Origin: Candidatus Bathyarchaeota archaeon
GTDB lineage: Archaea > Thermoproteota > Bathyarchaeia > Bathyarchaeales > Bathycorpusculaceae
Direction: 5' to 3'
DNA: 64,000 nt
Assembly: GCA_963715865.1 (NCBI GenBank)
Contig: OY970280.1
Coordinates: 320,001-384,000, forward strand
Shown: positions 1 through 21,391 of the stretch, piece by piece
Numbering within the stretch: the stretch's first letter is position 1
Layout: every line of letters begins with the position of its first letter
Notes under the pieces: generated by a model
Seen by the model: only the letters and a program-made list of their open reading frames with translations
Database searches by the model: none
Told to the model about the DNA's origin: nothing
Made by a program: the position numbers and the translations under genes

Positions 1-1
1 C

Positions 2-289
2 AACTTGGAAATCTCTTTTGCTGACACAGGCATGGGCATTTCTGACGAAATTTTACCAAAGATGTTCTCCCCATTGTTCACTACGAAAGCGCAGGGCATG
101 GGCTTCGGCTTAGCCATATGCAAACGCATCATCGAGGCGCATGAAGGAACAATAAGCGTTAAAACAGCCACAGGCAAAGGAACAACCTTCACGGTTACTT
201 TGCCAATTAAACACGAACCTGAAATTGGAGGTGAAAAAGTTTGGATAAACATGCCAGAATCCTCGTTGTCGACGATGACGAAAGCATAA
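2..289 (+). CDS. Sensor histidine kinase, C-terminal HATPase_c part (truncated by window start)
   Basis: DTGMGI (G1), FTTKAQGMGFGL (F/G2), GKGTTFTVTLP motifs. Confidence 0.92.
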   Translation, partial: NLEISFADTGMGISDEILPKMFSPLFTTKAQGMGFGLAICKRIIEAHEGTISVKTATGKGTTFTVTLPIKHEPEIGGEKVWINMPESSLSTMTKA

Positions 290-693
290 GAAAAACGATG
301 AAAGCTATACTTGAAGACGAAGGTTACATTGTGGATTTAGCAGCTACCGGAAGCGAAGCCATTCAAAAAACGAAAGAAAAAGCCTACAACATAGCGCTCT
401 TAGACATCCGATTGCCCGACATAGAAGGCGTAGAACTACTAAAACTAATAAAAGACACAGTGCCACATACCCGCAAAATAATGGTCACAGGCTACCCCTC
501 AATGCAAAACGCTGTAGCCGCCCTAAACAAGAACGCAGACGCATACTTAATCAAGCCCGTAAACGTTGAAAAACTCCTGAATACGGTGAAAGAGCAGTTG
601 CAGTTACAGGAAGATGAAAGAAGATTTAGCGAGCAAAAAGTAGCCGAATTCATTGAAACCCGAGTCAAAGAATTGTCCGTCAACCGTCTCTAA
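241..693 (+). CDS. Response regulator receiver protein
   Basis: LVVDDD, phospho-Asp in LLDIRLPD, MVTGY, YLIKP; GGAGGTG RBS ahead of TTG start. Confidence 0.93.
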   Translation: MDKHARILVVDDDESIRKTMKAILEDEGYIVDLAATGSEAIQKTKEKAYNIALLDIRLPDIEGVELLKLIKDTVPHTRKIMVTGYPSMQNAVAALNKNADAYLIKPVNVEKLLNTVKEQLQLQEDERRFSEQKVAEFIETRVKELSVNRL

Positions 694-1232
694 ACAGACG
701 AATATTCCCATTTTTATTTCATGCTCTAAGTTTTATTCAAACGAAAAAGTAGATTTGTTGCTGTTATTGCACAGTCACGCATGTTAATACGGTAAATTTC
801 CCGCTATTCCTTAGGGTGAAAAAATTATGGTTTTCATTGATCAGGCGCCCTTTTTTCTTAGCCTTTTGGAGGTGACAGTTTTCGTAGAAGAGAAAAAGAA
901 AGGTCAATTTACTATTGACAACGAAAAAAGAAAAAAGAAACAATTGAAGAAAGCCATCATCAAGTCAATATACCTCCAGATATTGGCGACGAAGAAAAGA
1001 AAGCTTTGGAGCAAACTGGTGACGATGCAATTTCAGGATGGTAAAAATAACTATTCAATTTTCCGTCTTCAAACGGCAAGCAAAACAGTTCACTTTCTTG
1101 AAAGGAAGTTTTTTGGATTTAGAAAAAAACCCTAAACATAATGTTTCAAACCTGAAAAATTAATCTATTTACTAGATAAAACGCAAATCTTTTATTAACA
1201 TCAACTATAGTAATAAACAAGAGGCAAAACCC

Positions 1233-1493
1233 TTGACAGAAGAAGCCATAATCGAAATCGGACACATAACACATTTCTTCTCCAAAATCAGTGTAGCAGT
1301 AGTAGAATTAACATTACCCTTAGCGGTTGGAGACCGCATACTCATCAAAGGGCCCTCAACCGATTTTGAGCAAACTGTAGAATCCATGCAAATAGACCGC
1401 AAAGATATCCAACGAGCTGAAGGTGGACAAAGCATAGGATTAAAAGTGGCGCAACCAGCAAAAGAAAAAGATGTAGTTTATAAGAAACTGTAA
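1233..1493 (+). CDS. Small EF-Tu domain II-like beta-barrel (translation elongation factor-like / U32 C-terminal-like protein)
   Basis: IGHITHFFSKISVAVVEL...VGDRILIKG...QTVESMQID...GQSIGLKV pattern. Confidence 0.75.
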   Translation: MTEEAIIEIGHITHFFSKISVAVVELTLPLAVGDRILIKGPSTDFEQTVESMQIDRKDIQRAEGGQSIGLKVAQPAKEKDVVYKKL

Positions 1494-1530
1494 TGCGTTT
1501 AAGGGACAATTTCGCGGCCAGGTGTACTGA

Positions 1531-1782
1531 ATGGGTGGCCTGTCAAAGAATCAAAAGAAAATCATGGAGTTCCTCCAAATTAAATCTGACATGACGACGA
1601 AGGAAATCGCAGAGTTGATTTTCGGCAGAATTGTGTTATATAAATCAAAGGAATACGCTTCAGTCCACCGTAGCCTGATTTCTCTAGAACGCCTAAGCTA
1701 CATCCAGAGAGTTCAGGTTCAGCTTAGATGGCGCTTAGCGGCCAAGAAGAAAGCTGAGGGTGCCCCAAGACTCAAGGAATGA
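1531..1782 (+). CDS. Small winged-helix DNA-binding protein
   Basis: IMEFL...MTTKEIAELIFG...VHRSLISLERLSYIQRV helix/wing pattern. Confidence 0.6.
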   Translation: MGGLSKNQKKIMEFLQIKSDMTTKEIAELIFGRIVLYKSKEYASVHRSLISLERLSYIQRVQVQLRWRLAAKKKAEGAPRLKE

Positions 1783-2899
1783 TTTCGCAACCGTTGTATT
1801 TGAAGTAATCAAAGTCTGCTAAGCTAATCGTACCGTTGTTTACGAGTTTTCTGATTCTTTGTAACTGACCTTCAACAGATCGTATCAAACCCTTTACAGT
1901 GTTGCAAACTTCAGCGTAGGCTTGGTCGCTCCAACGTTTAGTTACGTTAGCATAGAGACAACGCCCTCCGCAAACACCAAGAACATTACATTCTGTGCAA
2001 GGCGTATTGTTTACGAGTATCTTTCCAAGGCTTAATGGATCCGTTTCAGCGATGTGACCCAGATAGTACTTTTTCATACCCCACATTGTTGGGCACGGAA
2101 TTATGCGGCCGTCAGTCTGGATTGCATAGTTTATCCAGCCTCCACCGCAGCGCATCAGGCTTGGCTCTTTATCTAGGATGAGTGAACTTGCAATTCCCAG
2201 AAGTGGGTAGAGCCGCAACACAACGCCTTTTTCTTCCATCTGGTCCACCCAGAAACTTGCCAACTTCTCAACCCCTGGAATGTATTGGTCCTCGCTCCAC
2301 CGCTTGAAATCTCGCCTTGCATAGTCGTTTCCCCAGAAACCAGCGTTCAACTGCCAATGAACAGACGAAAAAGGGAACACATTGTTGTCCAGAAGCCATG
2401 TGACCTGCTTGTAGATGTCAGTCTGCTCCATAACCGTCATCCTCGCAATCAACTCGCCGCTGAAGCCATTTTTCGCGATATGCTTCAGGTTATCTACGAC
2501 TTTTTTGAAAGTGCCTTTTCCCCTGTAATAGTCCGTTAACGCTTCATCACCGTCTAGAGAAACGAGGATGGAGTGGAAACGGTTAACGTACTCCTGTTCT
2601 AAATGGTCAAGGAGCACACCGTTTGTCTGGATCATGAAGTGTTTTGGCTTCACCATGTCCATAATTTGTTTTATCTCACTCGTGCACAGAAGAGGTTCGC
2701 CACCGTAAAACGTCACGACACAATCGGCGTCGCGGCGGCAAAAATTAGCTAACATTTTCCAGTCATAATTCGCTTTCTTCGGCAAGGAATAATCTACATC
2801 GAATTCGCCGAAGTCTTCATCAAAATCCTCCAGCGTCTCGCCGAAACAGTACCTGCATTGCAAGTTGCATTCAGTTGTCAGAACGATGTGGAAGAACAT
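1772..2899 (-). CDS. Radical SAM enzyme with SPASM-like C-terminus (AF0577 family-like)
   Basis: CNLQCRYC CxxxCxxC, FYGGEPLL, C-terminal Cys cluster CGGG...CP...CTEC...CGGRC. Confidence 0.85.
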   Translation of the reverse strand: MFFHIVLTTECNLQCRYCFGETLEDFDEDFGEFDVDYSLPKKANYDWKMLANFCRRDADCVVTFYGGEPLLCTSEIKQIMDMVKPKHFMIQTNGVLLDHLEQEYVNRFHSILVSLDGDEALTDYYRGKGTFKKVVDNLKHIAKNGFSGELIARMTVMEQTDIYKQVTWLLDNNVFPFSSVHWQLNAGFWGNDYARRDFKRWSEDQYIPGVEKLASFWVDQMEEKGVVLRLYPLLGIASSLILDKEPSLMRCGGGWINYAIQTDGRIIPCPTMWGMKKYYLGHIAETDPLSLGKILVNNTPCTECNVLGVCGGRCLYANVTKRWSDQAYAEVCNTVKGLIRSVEGQLQRIRKLVNNGTISLADFDYFKYNGCEIIP

Positions 2900-2924
2900 G
2901 CCTTAGCTTAAATAAAGAACGAGC

Positions 2925-4247
2925 TTAATAGTATTTTTCCGCGAACTCTTTAGCTTTCTCCATGTTTTCCTGACCACCCTCGAATTCCACACACTCCTGC
3001 TCTGCCTTATCAGGTTCGCATTCCTTCTTTGCCTTGGCTTCATCTTTTTTATGTGCTTTCGCCACTTCTTTCTGTGCTTTCTCGATGTAGTTTTTCAGAT
3101 CGCGAGCTCTCATGATTTTTTCGGACAGCGTTTCAGGGGCATAAAGCAGGGGAATAGTTGCCAAGAACAGGAATAAGCTTGCCAAAGAGAAGGAGGTTGT
3201 AACCGGGACAGCTTCGACAAAAGGCTGAGCCAGCGCTTCAATCAGGTTCGAGAATAGAAAGGGCATACAGCCCAAAAGGTAAAAACTTTCCCTGTTTCTT
3301 CCTTCAGAGATGTCTCCCCAGACAACGAAGATGAAAGTAACGTAAAGGAAGCCCCATGCGACTCCGTCAAATAACACATACATAATTTGGGAAAACGCTG
3401 TTCCTGGAAGAAGGCTTAAAAACGCGTATGCCAAACCAAGCAAAATAAACCCCAAAATACCTGAGATTTTGCGTCCCTTGAAGTCGCATATCACGCCTCC
3501 AAGAAAAGCTGAAAAACTGGTTATTAAGAGCACAACCACCATGTACAAGCTGTATAATTCCGCTCCAAAATAGTGCTCTACTAAAGGTACTTCCACGAAG
3601 TTTACAATGGTGAATAGAAACCATGGGACAAAGTACAGAAAAAAGGTCCGTTCCCGAATTATGTTTAGGAGAGAAGTTTTGCGTTCCTCAACAACTCCCG
3701 CTTTAGGCACCAAGAAAAACACGCTTGCTGTGCCCATCAGTCTCCATGCTGCTAGCACTACAAACTTGTAGTCCACGTTTAAGGTGCCGATGTACATATA
3801 AATCAAAGCGGTAAGAGCTTGAATAGCGAAAAACACAAAAGCTCCATTTCGACCGCGGTTATTAGATTTTGAATTCTCCGAAAAGAACGCAAGACAAGTA
3901 GGAATACCCAATCCAGCTAATGCTCCGATAGGAAGCGATAAAAAAACCACGTTGAGCGAGATCGCCTGTGGAGCCAAAAACGCCGAAACCGTACATGTGA
4001 CCGCACCTAGCGAGACCCAAGTTAACAACGACGTTTTTCCTCTTAGTTTCTTGCTCAAAACAGTTGCGCCAATGATAGCGGAGGCAAGTAAAGTCCCAAA
4101 GTATGCGATAGACGCCAGCAAAATGTTGCTGAAGGAAGTTTTTCCTATAATGTCTGAAATGACAAACCAAGTAAGGGAGAACCAAGATACACTATTAATC
4201 AGCAGGAATAGAGAAGGAAGCGACTCTCGTGTTTTGGCTTTCCACAT
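2925..4247 (-). CDS. MFS-like 12-TM transporter
   Basis: About 12 hydrophobic segments, GGVICDFKGRK motif-A-like loop, charged C-tail. Confidence 0.75.
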   Translation of the reverse strand: MWKAKTRESLPSLFLLINSVSWFSLTWFVISDIIGKTSFSNILLASIAYFGTLLASAIIGATVLSKKLRGKTSLLTWVSLGAVTCTVSAFLAPQAISLNVVFLSLPIGALAGLGIPTCLAFFSENSKSNNRGRNGAFVFFAIQALTALIYMYIGTLNVDYKFVVLAAWRLMGTASVFFLVPKAGVVEERKTSLLNIIRERTFFLYFVPWFLFTIVNFVEVPLVEHYFGAELYSLYMVVVLLITSFSAFLGGVICDFKGRKISGILGFILLGLAYAFLSLLPGTAFSQIMYVLFDGVAWGFLYVTFIFVVWGDISEGRNRESFYLLGCMPFLFSNLIEALAQPFVEAVPVTTSFSLASLFLFLATIPLLYAPETLSEKIMRARDLKNYIEKAQKEVAKAHKKDEAKAKKECEPDKAEQECVEFEGGQENMEKAKEFAEKYY

Positions 4248-18176: not shown

Positions 18177-18295
18177 TGGTGCAGGGGGTGGGATTTGAAC
18201 CCACGAACCTCTACAGGATAGGCTCCTGAAGCTATCGCACCGCTCTCTTGTGGGAGGGCAGTTCTACGCCTTTGACCATGCTCGGCGACCCCTGC
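18177..18295 (-). tRNA. tRNA-Leu(CAG) with a 31-nt non-canonical intron; CCA encoded
   Basis: GCAGGGG/CCCCTGC acceptor stem, GGTTCAAATCC T-arm, long variable arm; removing 18233-18263 restores TAGGC-TT-CAG-GA-GCCTA. Confidence 0.93.
18233..18263 (-). other. tRNA intron at position 29/30 (anticodon stem), relaxed bulge-helix-bulge
   Basis: Intron AACTGCCCTCCCACAAGAGAGCGGTGCGATA; ACTGC pairs with GCGGT; central helix has 3 of 4 pairs. Confidence 0.85.
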
Positions 18296-18438
18296 ACGGA
18301 AATATTGAATGTAGTTATTCAAAATGAGCCTTACAAATAAATACATACTGTCGTGCTTTTATAAAAGAGCAGCCAACCGACTCTTGAAAAGATAGTAGTT
18401 TTTAATTACCTCATCTGCTAAAGCGCTTATTTGATATT

Positions 18439-19005
18439 ATGAACCCAGCTAACAGTAGAAAGTCAAAAATTTTAGAACTTGCTCTTACTAACAGGGAAAT
18501 AGCTGCCGTTGTATTAGGTCAAGCCCTTTTGGATGAAGGCGGAATCGGCTCCCAGAGTATAACGATATTTTACACAAATAAAGGGGAAGCCGAACAGCTT
18601 TGGAAAATTGCCGATTCATTAGGATATGCAAATCCCTTAAGCACGAAAAAACACAGAAATCATTGCCAATATGGTTTTTCTATAAAAGCAGCTAAGCGAA
18701 GGGAGCTATATGAGCAAATAGGTCCATTGCCAAATCCGAGAAAAGACAAAATATTTTTGCACTTGGCTAGTAGAGGAGGAAAAACTGTGAGGGCAGAAGG
18801 AGAAACAAGAGGGTTAATTCTTCAATCGCTTAAATTGAACCCTAAAACGGTTCTCGACTTAATGCTTGAGTTAGATACGAATGCCTCAACAATGAGAAAA
18901 CACCTAAAAAAACTCCAAAATGAAGGACTTGTGCGAATAATTGGTAAGGATTATGATGCACTTCAGAAAAGCCTTAGAACAGCGAATTTATGGAAAGCTA
19001 TCTGA
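18439..19005 (+). CDS. Single-domain LAGLIDADG-like protein fused to a C-terminal wHTH
   Basis: VLGQALLDEG motif followed by an alpha-beta pattern ending LYEQIGPLPNPRK; C-terminal TVLDLMLELDTNASTMRKHLKKLQNEGLV. Confidence 0.6.
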   Translation: MNPANSRKSKILELALTNREIAAVVLGQALLDEGGIGSQSITIFYTNKGEAEQLWKIADSLGYANPLSTKKHRNHCQYGFSIKAAKRRELYEQIGPLPNPRKDKIFLHLASRGGKTVRAEGETRGLILQSLKLNPKTVLDLMLELDTNASTMRKHLKKLQNEGLVRIIGKDYDALQKSLRTANLWKAI

Positions 19006-19027
19006 AAACAATTTCTAAGAGGAATAA

Positions 19028-20218
19028 TTATTCACTAGTTTCAAGATATTCAGCCAAAGACTTTTTCCACGTAACAGGCGATGAATTAAAGGCGTCCTTA
19101 AACCGAGAATAAACCGTTTCATCGGGGTTGACAATGGTGAAGTGCACTCTTTTTTGTAAATTGCCTGACAATCCCAGCCGCAGAATGGCTTCAGTACCAA
19201 AATCGGTGGACGGAAAGCTATACCCAATTATTACAATCTCCCGAGAAACGGCAACTTGAGTAATCGCCCGGTTCCAGAGGTACTTAAGTGGGTGCATTGA
19301 ATAGTCTTTTGCCAATAAAGGCGGAACTATCACTCTTTCAAGATAAATGTTTGACTGGTTGCATGTTGGACAAGTCTTCGGTTTTATCGAATTCCAAGCG
19401 CCCATTTTCTCCGAACGCGTTAATAAATAGGAATTGCAATAAGAACAATGCAACCAATTCAATGAACCATGCAACTTAAGCATAGCTACTTGCGACCACT
19501 TGCTTTCTGGGCTTTCCCAACTTTGTTCGCTATACACTTTATTAAATGGTAAAAAATAACCAGAGTCCGTTAACTTTCCAGATTGCCTGAGTGCATTATC
19601 CATAAGCAAGTCGTAATTAAAACTGATTACCGCATCGCCTTGTTCCAAAGAGTCTGCCAACTTCAAATGTTCTTGACAAACTTGTCCCCTCAGTGCTTCT
19701 TCAATTGTTATTGCTACCAATTCTAGCAACGCTGGAAGCGAATCATCTACATAGAAATTTGAACTATCTTTTCTCGGATACCCATACAATGAGGGCATAG
19801 GCTGAAAAACTTCAGTCTGAAGACTAAGCTGGGTCATTACTTTTTCAAGGCTAAGACGTTTGTCGTCTAAGAAATCCAGAGTTTTCCTACCCTTCTCAGT
19901 ATTTATCCAACCTTTCATGAAGGATTCTTGATCGAAACTAAAGTCATAGCCATAAAGTCCTTGCAGAGTAAGTATCATATTTTGAATTGTTAATAGAAAG
20001 TTAGGTTCTACATTGCCGCTAAGCAGGACTTTCTTAGCCATTCTAAAAAAGTCATTGTCAGTGGGACATTCAAGACCAGGTATTTGGGATACGCTCTGTT
20101 TGAAGTTTTTAGAGCAGCCAGCACCTATTATCAGCAGTTTATGACCACTCATATTCCTCATATGATCATTTAAAAACTTGTATTCATCTTGCAATCGGTT
20201 GGTCAGTTGTTCAAGCAT
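19028..20218 (-). CDS. SIR2-like (SIR2_2) NAD-binding protein with zinc ribbon
   Basis: IGAGCS, SFNYDLL, LKLHGSLNW, CSYC...CPTC, IVPP, IGYSF motifs. Confidence 0.85.
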   Translation of the reverse strand: MLEQLTNRLQDEYKFLNDHMRNMSGHKLLIIGAGCSKNFKQSVSQIPGLECPTDNDFFRMAKKVLLSGNVEPNFLLTIQNMILTLQGLYGYDFSFDQESFMKGWINTEKGRKTLDFLDDKRLSLEKVMTQLSLQTEVFQPMPSLYGYPRKDSSNFYVDDSLPALLELVAITIEEALRGQVCQEHLKLADSLEQGDAVISFNYDLLMDNALRQSGKLTDSGYFLPFNKVYSEQSWESPESKWSQVAMLKLHGSLNWLHCSYCNSYLLTRSEKMGAWNSIKPKTCPTCNQSNIYLERVIVPPLLAKDYSMHPLKYLWNRAITQVAVSREIVIIGYSFPSTDFGTEAILRLGLSGNLQKRVHFTIVNPDETVYSRFKDAFNSSPVTWKKSLAEYLETSE

Positions 20219-20278
20219 TTGATTGCCCTTTAATAAATAGGGCTTAGGTCATTTATTGGTTTTCTAGAGTATTCATTT

Positions 20279-20320
20279 CTGAAAGCCTACGCCTTTGGCC
20301 ATGCTCGGCGACCCCTGCAC
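20279..20320 (-). repeat. Intron-less 5' half of tRNA-Leu (att-like remnant)
   Basis: Sense GTGCAGGGGTCGCCGAGCATGGCCAAAGGCGTAGGCTTTCAG equals the spliced 5' half with one substitution and one extra T; no 3' half follows. Confidence 0.85.
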
Positions 20321-20473
20321 TTAACGGACTTGCTGTATCAAAATTAATTCTTAATGATAAATACGTTACCACTAGCATTTTTTCGACATGTAAGTATGCC
20401 TCTCGCGGTTAATTTGGTAAAAAGCTTAAATCTTTACTGCAAACAAAAAAGAACAGTGCGGGCGAAAGAGTTT

Positions 20474-21085
20474 ATGGGCGTTGGCTGGAAAGAATGGAGT
20501 AAAAGTGACGCTATCTATGGAATTCTAGTTCCAGTAATCGTAGTTTTGGCAATTGTTGGCCTCTCCAGATTAGGTTCCGTTTTAGGGTTTGACTCCTATG
20601 GCGTCGTAATAGGAATCATCATGGAGCTTGAAGAGTTAACTGTTATTGCTGTGGTTCCGCTTTTGCTCGGGTTAATTTGGAACCGCTGGGCAGGCGGAGC
20701 CGCGGGCTTTTTGATGGGCAGCCTCTATGCCTTGTATTGGGCAGACCAGTTTGGACAACTAAGCACTTTAGGTTTTCACGCGAGTGCAGGCATGATTTTG
20801 CTAGGGTATGTTCTAAGCGCTATGCTTATTGGTTATATGGCTGGAGCATTGAGCAAGCGTTCAGAAGACTTACGCAGAATGATTATCTCCGGAGTAACCG
20901 CAACAACCATCGGGGGACTGCTGCTTTTCGGAGTTTTCCAGCTTTCGCCTGCAAACGTTGTGACGGGGTTAGATGGCTTTCTGCTAACTCTGCTTCCGCG
21001 AATCGCGTGCGGAGCTATTATTCCAGTCATAGCCAAAGTATTCTTCTGGTACGGTGTAGGCTTAAACAAAAAAGCAAATTCATGA
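20474..21085 (+). CDS. Six-TM membrane protein (ECF S-component-like)
   Basis: Six hydrophobic segments, Gly-rich WAGGAAG; start set at ATG 20474. Confidence 0.65.
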   Translation: MGVGWKEWSKSDAIYGILVPVIVVLAIVGLSRLGSVLGFDSYGVVIGIIMELEELTVIAVVPLLLGLIWNRWAGGAAGFLMGSLYALYWADQFGQLSTLGFHASAGMILLGYVLSAMLIGYMAGALSKRSEDLRRMIISGVTATTIGGLLLFGVFQLSPANVVTGLDGFLLTLLPRIACGAIIPVIAKVFFWYGVGLNKKANS

Positions 21086-21103
21086 CCTTGAGGCTGTTCA
21101 TCC

Positions 21104-21391
21104 CTAAGCTTTGGCTTTCTTCAGTTTTTCAATTATCTTTTGAGTTTCTGCTTCTGATGGGTGCGTGATGGCGCCGGCAGGACAGATATCTTCACAACCT
21201 CTACACATAACTACGCACGCATTTTGGTTTTTTACAACCGTTTTCTTTTTTCCATCTTTCTCTTCGAATCCGAAAGTTCTCATGTGACAGAAATCTACGC
21301 ATTTTCCGCAACTGATGCATTTTTCATAGTCTATGCTTGGATACCACGGTATCTTGTTTCTTGAAATTCCTTCGTATGATTCTTCAGACAT
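21104..21391 (-). CDS. 2x[4Fe-4S] ferredoxin
   Basis: CISCGKCVDFC and CVVMCRGCEDICP motifs. Confidence 0.9.
   Translation of the reverse strand: MSEESYEGISRNKIPWYPSIDYEKCISCGKCVDFCHMRTFGFEEKDGKKKTVVKNQNACVVMCRGCEDICPAGAITHPSEAETQKIIEKLKKAKA

Follow-up and report, generated by a model that had tools for sequence, protein, structure and literature searches.

A probable mobile cassette without an integrase in the 5′ half of an intron-bearing tRNA-Leu(CAG) gene of Bathyarchaeia

Among SSV-type elements in transfer RNA (tRNA) genes, the best-known case, that of SSV1, duplicates the 3′ part of the tRNA. A different situation was described for the tRNA-Thr(GGU) gene of Caldiarchaeum subterraneum, where an extra intron (24/25), missing from the allele without the insertion, was inferred to have arrived with the inserted element; the latter encodes a putative recombinase (Sugahara et al. 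2012, PLoS One, PMC3293823). Randau and Soll (2008) hypothesized, as summarized in a later review (PMC4090602), that tRNA introns protect against integration. Introns can also profit from an enzyme that they do not encode: in collaborative homing, a free-standing endonuclease works together with an endonuclease-less intron, as for cyanophage psbA and F-CphI (PMC6083498) and for T4 mobE (PMC2790892). The acquisition of non-canonical introns, the splitting of tRNA genes and protection by introns are long-standing questions for which there are very few natural test cases. Here we analyze a locus in a 64,000-nucleotide (nt) stretch of a Candidatus Bathyarchaeota archaeon (the window; contig OY970280.1, positions 320,001–384,000), where an intron-bearing tRNA-Leu(CAG) gene is preceded by an intron-less copy of its own 5′ half. 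We estimate a probability of roughly 70% that a 1,989-bp mobile cassette, with the two copies as its ends, was inserted in the 5′ half of the tRNA gene, and that the intron is the host’s own. The studied genome (2.35 Mb, a single contig) is referred to as G000, other G numbers are comparison genomes and L numbers are loci.

The presence of a 34-nt repeat covering the 5′ half of the tRNA, with one copy upstream of the intact gene, was borne out. The two copies are direct repeats identical at 33 of 34 positions, with T in one and C in the other at tRNA position 21 as the sole difference (Table 1). The 32-nt tRNA part of the repeat has just two matching sites in G000; one further hit has three mismatches. 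The distal copy lies about 2 kb upstream of the intact, proximal gene, and past its TAG it reads GCTTTCAG, that is, the anticodon loop GCTTCAG with one extra T and without the intron; at the same place, the locus L069 has an intact GCTTCAG. The intron-less run across the exon junction is thus longer than the 2 nt noted in the original prediction, reaching through GCTT(T)CAG. The TATA-like sequence that had been remarked upstream of this copy is also there (GTATTTATC), and homologous sequence precedes the intact gene in the relatives G071, G041 and G012. Another TATA-like sequence, GTATTTATTTG, is found about 44 nt upstream of the proximal tRNA in a segment that we call spacer X, and an X-type module also stands upstream of the proximal copies at other cassette loci. 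Three independent metagenome assemblies (L069–L071), from three samples, reproduce the same architecture, and an assembly artefact is therefore excluded. The proximal gene itself was recognized by Rfam (18180–18295, minus strand; 36.4 bits against a gathering score of 29) and was missed by ARAGORN in default mode. In its intron mode, ARAGORN mistyped intron-bearing tRNA-Leu genes as Pro, Asn, Met or Glu, and a gene with a ‘798-nt intron’ that it reported at L078 was rejected as a fusion of the distal half with the 3′ half, since inspection revealed a normal proximal gene.

That a foreign cassette was integrated in the 5′ half of the tRNA, as had been suggested from the first reading of the locus, is supported by empty sites in three relatives. 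In the sister species G071, the sequences flanking the cassette align with an overlap that corresponds precisely to the 34-bp repeat; over 6.3 kb, the downstream flank matches that of G000 at 93.7% identity, and the tRNA and its 31-nt intron are identical. G041 and G052 have exact empty sites too; G041 shares the native upstream flank and is intron-less. By the NrdD gene, G041 is the closest relative (94.9% nucleotide identity), and G041 and G071 are sisters with a bootstrap of 100.

Further evidence comes from L069, which has the same cassette. Its two genes, one encoding a LAGLIDADG-fold protein with a winged helix-turn-helix (wHTH) domain and the other a SIR2-like protein, are 98.4% and 98.2% identical to those of G000, respectively. 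Identity is 97.9% in spacer X, 97% in the proximal repeat, 100% in the distal repeat and 100% in exon 2, and it is 66.7% in the intron. Outside the repeats, the adjoining membrane-protein gene is 86.5% identical and the downstream flank is unrelated. Synonymous divergence (dS) between these lineages is 0.025–0.05 for the cassette genes, as opposed to 0.23–0.36 for NrdD and about 0.6 for ferredoxin. The flanks of L069 resemble those of G041 and G071 (95–97%), and its intron resembles the introns of G097 and G019. Given the segment-wise identities and the dS values, the cassette appears to have moved recently between two host backgrounds, each keeping its own intron.

The nucleotide at tRNA position 21 serves as a marker of origin. 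C21 is present in both distal copies (G000 and L069), whereas the host alleles of G041 and G071, as well as the proximal copies, have T21. This indicates that the distal copy is cassette DNA from position 21 on, including its intron-less tail. The earlier view of the upstream copy as a displaced native 5′ half is supported, and its native promoter was displaced with it. A descent of G041 from a cassette-bearing allele by excision at GCTTCAG was considered and is unsupported, because G041 has T21, not C21. Taken together, these sequence comparisons show an insertion with defined limits, its mobility between host backgrounds and its independence of the intron.

How the insertion may have come about can be pictured as follows. 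The cassette would carry an attachment-like (att-like) copy of an intron-less tRNA-Leu(CAG), reaching from 2 nt before its start through the anticodon, with the promoter-like spacer X directly upstream. A crossover at roughly the first 20 nt of the tRNA, bounded by about −26 and +20 and upstream of the host intron, would then yield two products. The first is a rebuilt gene, in which spacer X and the repeat would lead into the host’s own intron and 3′ half. The second would be the stranded promoter of the host, followed by a 5′ half that ends in cassette DNA (C21 ... TAG-GCTT(T)CAG), and it is for this reason that the upstream copy would cross the exon junction without an intron. The intron would have left 34 nt of uninterrupted homology in place of about 41 nt, without preventing integration. 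A circular intermediate, the use of spacer X as a promoter and the catalyst are parts of this scheme that we infer. As no integrase is encoded, recombination would depend on a recombinase acting in trans or on homologous recombination by the host, using the 34 bp of identity.

Table 1. Features of the tRNA-Leu(CAG) locus and of the proposed cassette (window coordinates)
Feature	Position	Strand	Basis
tRNA-Leu(CAG) gene with encoded CCA; functional, apparently rebuilt (proximal) gene	18177–18295	−	Rfam RF00005; exon limits from intron-less orthologues
Exon 2 of proximal tRNA-Leu(CAG)	18177–18232	−	
31-nt bulge-helix-bulge intron, tRNA position 29/30	18233–18263	−	hBHBh′ covariation; identical in cassette-free G071
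Exon 1 of proximal tRNA-Leu(CAG)	18264–18295	−	
Proximal 34-nt repeat, attR-like: 2 leader nt and tRNA nt 1–32; T21	18264–18297	−	
Cassette spacer X, likely replacement promoter; TATA-like GTATTTATTTG at 18334–18344	18298–18438	−	
188-amino-acid protein: N-terminal LAGLIDADG-fold domain (residues ~19–110) and C-terminal ArsR-type winged helix	18439–19005	+	Pfam, AF2, Foldseek
396-amino-acid SIR2-like protein, variable cargo	19028–20218	−	Pfam SIR2_2
Intron-less tail GCTTTCAG after distal repeat; probable cassette DNA	20279–20286	−	Comparison with L069
Distal 34-nt repeat, attL-like; truncated copy of native 5′ half; C21	20287–20320	−	
Native tRNA-Leu promoter region left with distal copy; TATA-like GTATTTATC at 20356–20364	20321–20370	−	

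The limits of the intron (TAG, 31 nt, GCTT) are set by intron-less orthologues, TAG and GCTT being contiguous in more than 60 species of the genus. Its site, 29/30, is within the 5′ strand of the anticodon stem and is among the listed non-canonical tRNA intron sites (PMC4090602). The sequence fits the hBHBh′ form of the bulge-helix-bulge (BHB) motif, with two 3-nt bulges separated by a 4-bp helix and splice sites after the second bulge nucleotide. Over an alignment of 11 species, pairing is 100% in helix h, 95.5% in helix H and 87% in helix h′, the last with five compensatory pairs, and all slid controls of the motif gave lower pairing; one pair of helix H in the G000 intron is G·A. Among 120 genomes of the genus that were surveyed, 94 had a recognizable tRNA-Leu(CAG). 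A homologous intron of 25–31 nt at the same position is present in 25 of these 94 species, and the remainder (~73%) are intron-less. Intron sequences broadly track host relationships, not the cassette, and the intron is patchy among sister species. The idea that intron-bearing species form one clade was dropped, as the NrdD tree, itself built on a single gene, interleaves both states at its tips. The intron therefore looks like an ordinary non-canonical host BHB intron at 29/30, independent of this insertion.

These results change how the locus is to be read. The original prediction took it for a snapshot of intron gain, with the intron either brought in by an element or gained after integration, and proposed a comparison with cassette-free relatives. 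Such a relative, G071, has the identical 31-nt intron at its empty site, which contradicts a gain after integration, and with 24 other species sharing a homologous intron at the same position the snapshot of intron gain is lost as well. Delivery of the intron by the element does not hold at this locus, since the same cassette stands beside a 66.7% identical intron in L069; it may, however, describe the founding event of the cassette family.

Several other arrangements of tRNA-Leu were met in the survey. A tRNA-His gene is located about 25 nt directly upstream of tRNA-Leu in L005, L006, L116, L117 and L118 (genomes G018, G015, G046, G099 and G095, respectively), without the membrane-protein and ferredoxin genes that separate the two in G000 (20354–21391), and such tandems are found in intron-bearing as well as intron-less form. 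Of the two tRNA-Leu/ferredoxin loci in G125 (L059, L060), one is intron-bearing and the other not, and G133 has two identical intron-bearing loci (L056, L057); these doubled loci may reflect mixed-strain metagenome-assembled genomes (MAGs) or true duplications. Window positions 1–3176 are homologous (84–94%) to positions 755–4118 of L069, which are only about 4 kb from its tRNA-Leu, indicating that the lineages differ downstream of the tRNA by a rearrangement or have a variable region there. The 3′ side of tRNA-Leu is a second insertion site (L115, on G041:C130, 7811–9427; L069, 6959–7736). The 1.6-kb islet found there encodes a HepT-like RNase, an MNT-type nucleotidyltransferase and an RHH protein, and is closed by a 41-nt copy of a tRNA-Leu 3′ end of foreign type (CGTAGGCGTTCG in the variable arm, CCCTCTGC in the acceptor). 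G041 and L069 have this islet, G000 and G071 do not.

With regard to the cassette genes, the 188-amino-acid protein has a Pfam HTH_5 match at its C-terminus. Its AlphaFold2 (AF2) model, with a predicted local distance difference test (pLDDT) value of 85.5, shows the alpha-beta-beta-alpha-beta-beta-alpha topology of the LAGLIDADG core fold, and Foldseek matched this model to WhiA, I-CvuI, I-DmoI and I-CreI with probabilities of ~1.0 (for I-DmoI, 82 columns at an rmsd of 2.6). At the sequence level, no LAGLIDADG family of Pfam was hit at E ≤ 0.01, and a sequence-profile search of the PDB returned the wHTH domain only, the LAGLIDADG domain not being retrieved. The motifs LDEGG and KKHRNH are invariant, the former (D32-E33-G-G) across 20 sequences, the ratio of nonsynonymous to synonymous substitution (dN/dS) is 0.09–0.16, which means purifying selection, and 97 relatives with 57–97% identity were found in metagenomes. 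Modelled as a homodimer, the protein scored 0.84, against 0.00 for the best control; three runs agreed, the pLDDT of the partner was at least 89 and the predicted interface is formed by helix 20–33. Among proteins of solved structure used as a benchmark, the mark was reached by 20 of the 30 pairs and 1 of the 23 single chains, and the pass may reflect memory of I-CreI-like dimers.

The second gene of the cassette is cargo of a defence type. Its product matches Pfam SIR2_2 (1.6e-8) and, weakly, the Aga_SIR2/SIR2 models of PADLOC (Aga_SIR2, 1.2e-8). No pAgo, HerA or ThsB gene adjoins it, and with the LAGLIDADG-wHTH gene as its sole neighbour it lacks both a partner gene and a fused sensor domain such as known SIR2-based defence systems have (SIR2-pAgo, SIR2-HerA, Thoeris, DSR). 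Within the genus (61 genomes searched), the gene was found only in G000 and G052. The G052 homologue (G052:C7:252946–254121; L045/L053), with 75% amino acid identity, is at a different locus and has an in-frame TGA. We do not claim that the native tRNA promoter drives the SIR2-like gene, as a separate TATA-like box is found about 20 nt before its ATG. Open reading frames of the cassette are those of the wHTH protein and the SIR2_2 protein only, with no integrase between them, and the Phage_integrase matches of G000 are all outside the cassette.

To place the locus in a wider context, 13 related cassette loci across Bathyarchaeia were compared. No integrase family of Pfam appears in their gene lists. 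The LAGLIDADG-wHTH gene is the sole constant gene (13/13), although in a few loci it is a pseudogene (G022, G043 and G333). In eleven loci, a native-type promoter precedes a distal intron-less 5′ half, which stops within or at the anticodon and has small junctional indels; no distal copy was found when it was looked for in L072 and L084/G333. The stretch from the distal half to the 3′ end of the LAGLIDADG-wHTH gene contains varying cargo or none, and in the latter case the distal half abuts the stop codon. The proximal gene is intron-bearing in 12 of the 13 loci, the exception being L126, where an intron-less tRNA-Leu(CAG) has a fully recoded anticodon stem (TGAGG/CCTCA). At seven loci, the proximal 5′ half, together with its X-type promoter, is of a foreign GCAGAGGTAGCCAAGC type and the distal half is of host type; the GCAGAGGTAGCCAAGC type is native, and intron-less, in another genus (g21; G347). 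These seven proximal halves suggest that the family began with the import of a proximal promoter and 5′ half. Such an origin fits either the model of Sugahara et al. (2012) or an insertion made in the repair of a break within the anticodon loop.

Some members of the family stand apart. L126 (6650–7660) has a small RHH gene between the proximal tRNA and the LAGLIDADG-wHTH gene. L051 (G043:C11, 7294–7894) has a distal-type 5′ half that contains a 26-nt intron and ends in GCTTCAG, beside a LAGLIDADG-wHTH pseudogene. It is on a chromosomal contig away from the intact tRNA-Leu of this MAG (C5), and none of the scenarios accounts for it neatly; the MAG has a completeness of only 66% and may be a mixture. 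Since ordinary chromosomal genes are encoded on the contig, the thought that it is a free element carrying attP was given up. The distal 5′ halves of L076 and L078 are identical over 36 nt, and over 32 nt with that of L082. Synonymous divergence of the LAGLIDADG-wHTH gene is saturated between these three loci and their functional proximal 5′ halves differ, so the identity of the distal halves hints at constraint on the stranded half or its promoter.

Several points weigh against a cassette that moved by recombination within the repeat. First, no recombinase was identified, and neither an excised circle nor an attP junction was seen. Second, a larger homologous exchange, with crossovers falling by chance in the conserved tRNA, would give the same identity profile. 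Third, G071 could derive from a cassette-bearing allele by deletion between the repeats, so that the direction of change between G000 and G071 is not fixed by that pair alone. Fourth, the association of the cassette with an intron-bearing proximal tRNA (12/13) is left unaccounted for, though ~73% of the species of the genus are intron-less. In addition, the comparison genomes are mostly MAGs and the host tree is that of a single gene, NrdD.

The last but one of these points leads to the alternative that fares best, and that we regard as possible, if improbable: the LAGLIDADG-wHTH protein would be a free-standing homing endonuclease, with the intron conferring immunity, as in collaborative homing. 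The homodimer would cut intron-less tRNA-Leu(CAG) DNA at the pseudo-palindromic anticodon stem-loop, TAGGCT-TCAGG-AGCCTA (17 bp). The intron at 29/30 splits the left arm of this site and would shield the rebuilt gene, and the distal copy is without the right arm; in one lineage, a recoded anticodon stem would confer immunity in place of the intron. The distal half would be the left break end of the recipient, kept after one-sided repair. Such an enzyme would explain both the catalyst of movement and the pairing of cassette and intron. It accords with the LAGLIDADG fold, the invariant LDEGG and the predicted helix-helix homodimer, and with a gene that is under purifying selection and is the sole constant one, with no integrase, at the 13 loci. 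The distal copies of 11 loci, intron-less and ending in or at the anticodon with small indels, are as expected; so are the proximal introns of 12 loci and the altered stem (TGAGG/CCTCA) of the thirteenth, L126. Pseudogenes (G022, G043 and G333) and an intron that is patchy among sister species recall a homing cycle, and G000 has no intact putative target sequence. On the other hand, LAGLIDADG membership finds no support at the sequence level (neither from Pfam nor from the PDB search, which gave wHTH only), and the top structural match, WhiA, is a non-cleaving regulator. Furthermore, the latest transfer (G000/L069) left the intron behind and entered intron-bearing hosts that the enzyme should spare, and the distal-type copy of G043:C11 contains an intron. 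Homing and the mobile cassette with a host-owned intron are compatible: the former could be the mechanism by which the cassette family was founded and is maintained.

A second alternative, that the element delivered the intron, follows the model of Sugahara et al. (2012). Here, an attP with promoter, 5′ half and intron would have recombined in the anticodon loop of an intron-less gene, the complete 5′ half of the native, intron-less gene would be left as the distal copy, and alleles like that of G071 would have arisen later by deletion between the repeats. There is the precedent in Caldiarchaeum, and the distal copy is indeed intron-less and stops at the anticodon, the classical crossover site. 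At seven loci, the proximal half is of the GCAGAGGTAGCCAAGC type that is native in g21 while the distal half is of host type, and G043:C11 offers a copy with intron and GCTTCAG beside a LAGLIDADG-wHTH pseudogene. The intron-less G041, closest relative by NrdD and with the same native flank, has an empty site that is compatible with this course of events and insufficient to establish it. For the present locus, however, we hold it to be quite doubtful: one and the same cassette stands beside two different introns (G000 and L069), G071 has the identical intron and no cassette, the C21 of the distal copy is cassette-borne and missing from the host alleles of G041 and G071, and introns broadly follow host relationships rather than the cassette. 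Finally, a chance repeat, an assembly artefact or a local duplication without any mobile element, for which nothing but the shortness of the repeat speaks, can practically be dismissed, as the repeat is unique in a single-contig genome, exact empty sites exist in relatives, three independent assemblies agree and the architecture recurs in 13 loci.

The significance of the locus lies in part in that one tight clade of Bathyarchaeia has all relevant allelic states: G041 is intron-less, G071 has the intron only, and G000 and L069 have the cassette with different introns. Related loci in several families widen this comparison. If the cassette was inserted as we propose, it is a direct negative example for the protection hypothesis, in which the att homology was shortened and integration was not stopped. 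It would also represent a compact mobile unit without integrase, by which a tRNA gene receives a new promoter and 5′ end and defence-type cargo such as the SIR2-like gene is transported. Should the homing explanation be true, this would be an archaeal counterpart of collaborative homing for a protein-spliced intron, and a mechanism at the DNA level that selects, spreads and maintains a non-canonical tRNA intron and generates stranded 5′ halves. Since the LAGLIDADG-fold gene is almost always paired with an intron-bearing or recoded tRNA, such homing and immunity can be tested directly.

Comparison with the known systems reveals a mixture of shared and distinct features. Like pNOB8/SSV-type elements, the cassette is bounded on both sides by directly repeated tRNA sequence, the tRNA gene is rebuilt and relatives have empty sites, and the same element occurs in different hosts (98% identity in the cassette versus 86.5% in the flank). 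Those elements have a tyrosine integrase, whose gene is split on integration in the SSV type, whereas no integrase is found at any of the 13 loci here; also different is that the promoter-proximal 5′ half is duplicated, with the promoter probably supplied by the element. The premise of Randau and Soll is fitted in so far as the intron interrupts the tRNA stretch copied by the element and reduces the homology from about 41 to 34 nt. Nevertheless, integration in two hosts with different introns suggests that the intron gave no effective protection against this cassette.

As in collaborative homing, an endonuclease-like gene is located beside, and not within, the gene whose small intron interrupts a plausible target. 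The described cases, however, involve group I introns in protein-coding genes of phages, with cleavage demonstrated, while here the tRNA gene of an archaeon has a BHB intron and a duplicated 5′ half, and the endonuclease is putative. WhiA (PDB 3hyi), the best structural match, has the same order of a LAGLIDADG fold followed by a helix-turn-helix. It is a bacterial transcription factor with two degenerate LAGLIDADG domains, unlike the single domain with conserved acidic LDEGG and predicted I-CreI-like homodimer seen here.

The closest parallel is the tRNA-Thr gene of Caldiarchaeum, in which a 5′ tRNA fragment likewise stands upstream (~1.8 kb) of an intact intron-bearing gene, with an inserted element in between, and in which alleles with and without the insertion exist in close relatives. 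It differs in that the intron of tRNA-Leu occurs without the cassette and is not the same beside two copies of one cassette, and in that no recombinase is encoded, the hallmark gene being that of the LAGLIDADG fold. Therefore, we regard the cassette as a variant of the tRNA-targeting integrative cassette, for which Caldiarchaeum tRNA-Thr is the single published analogue.

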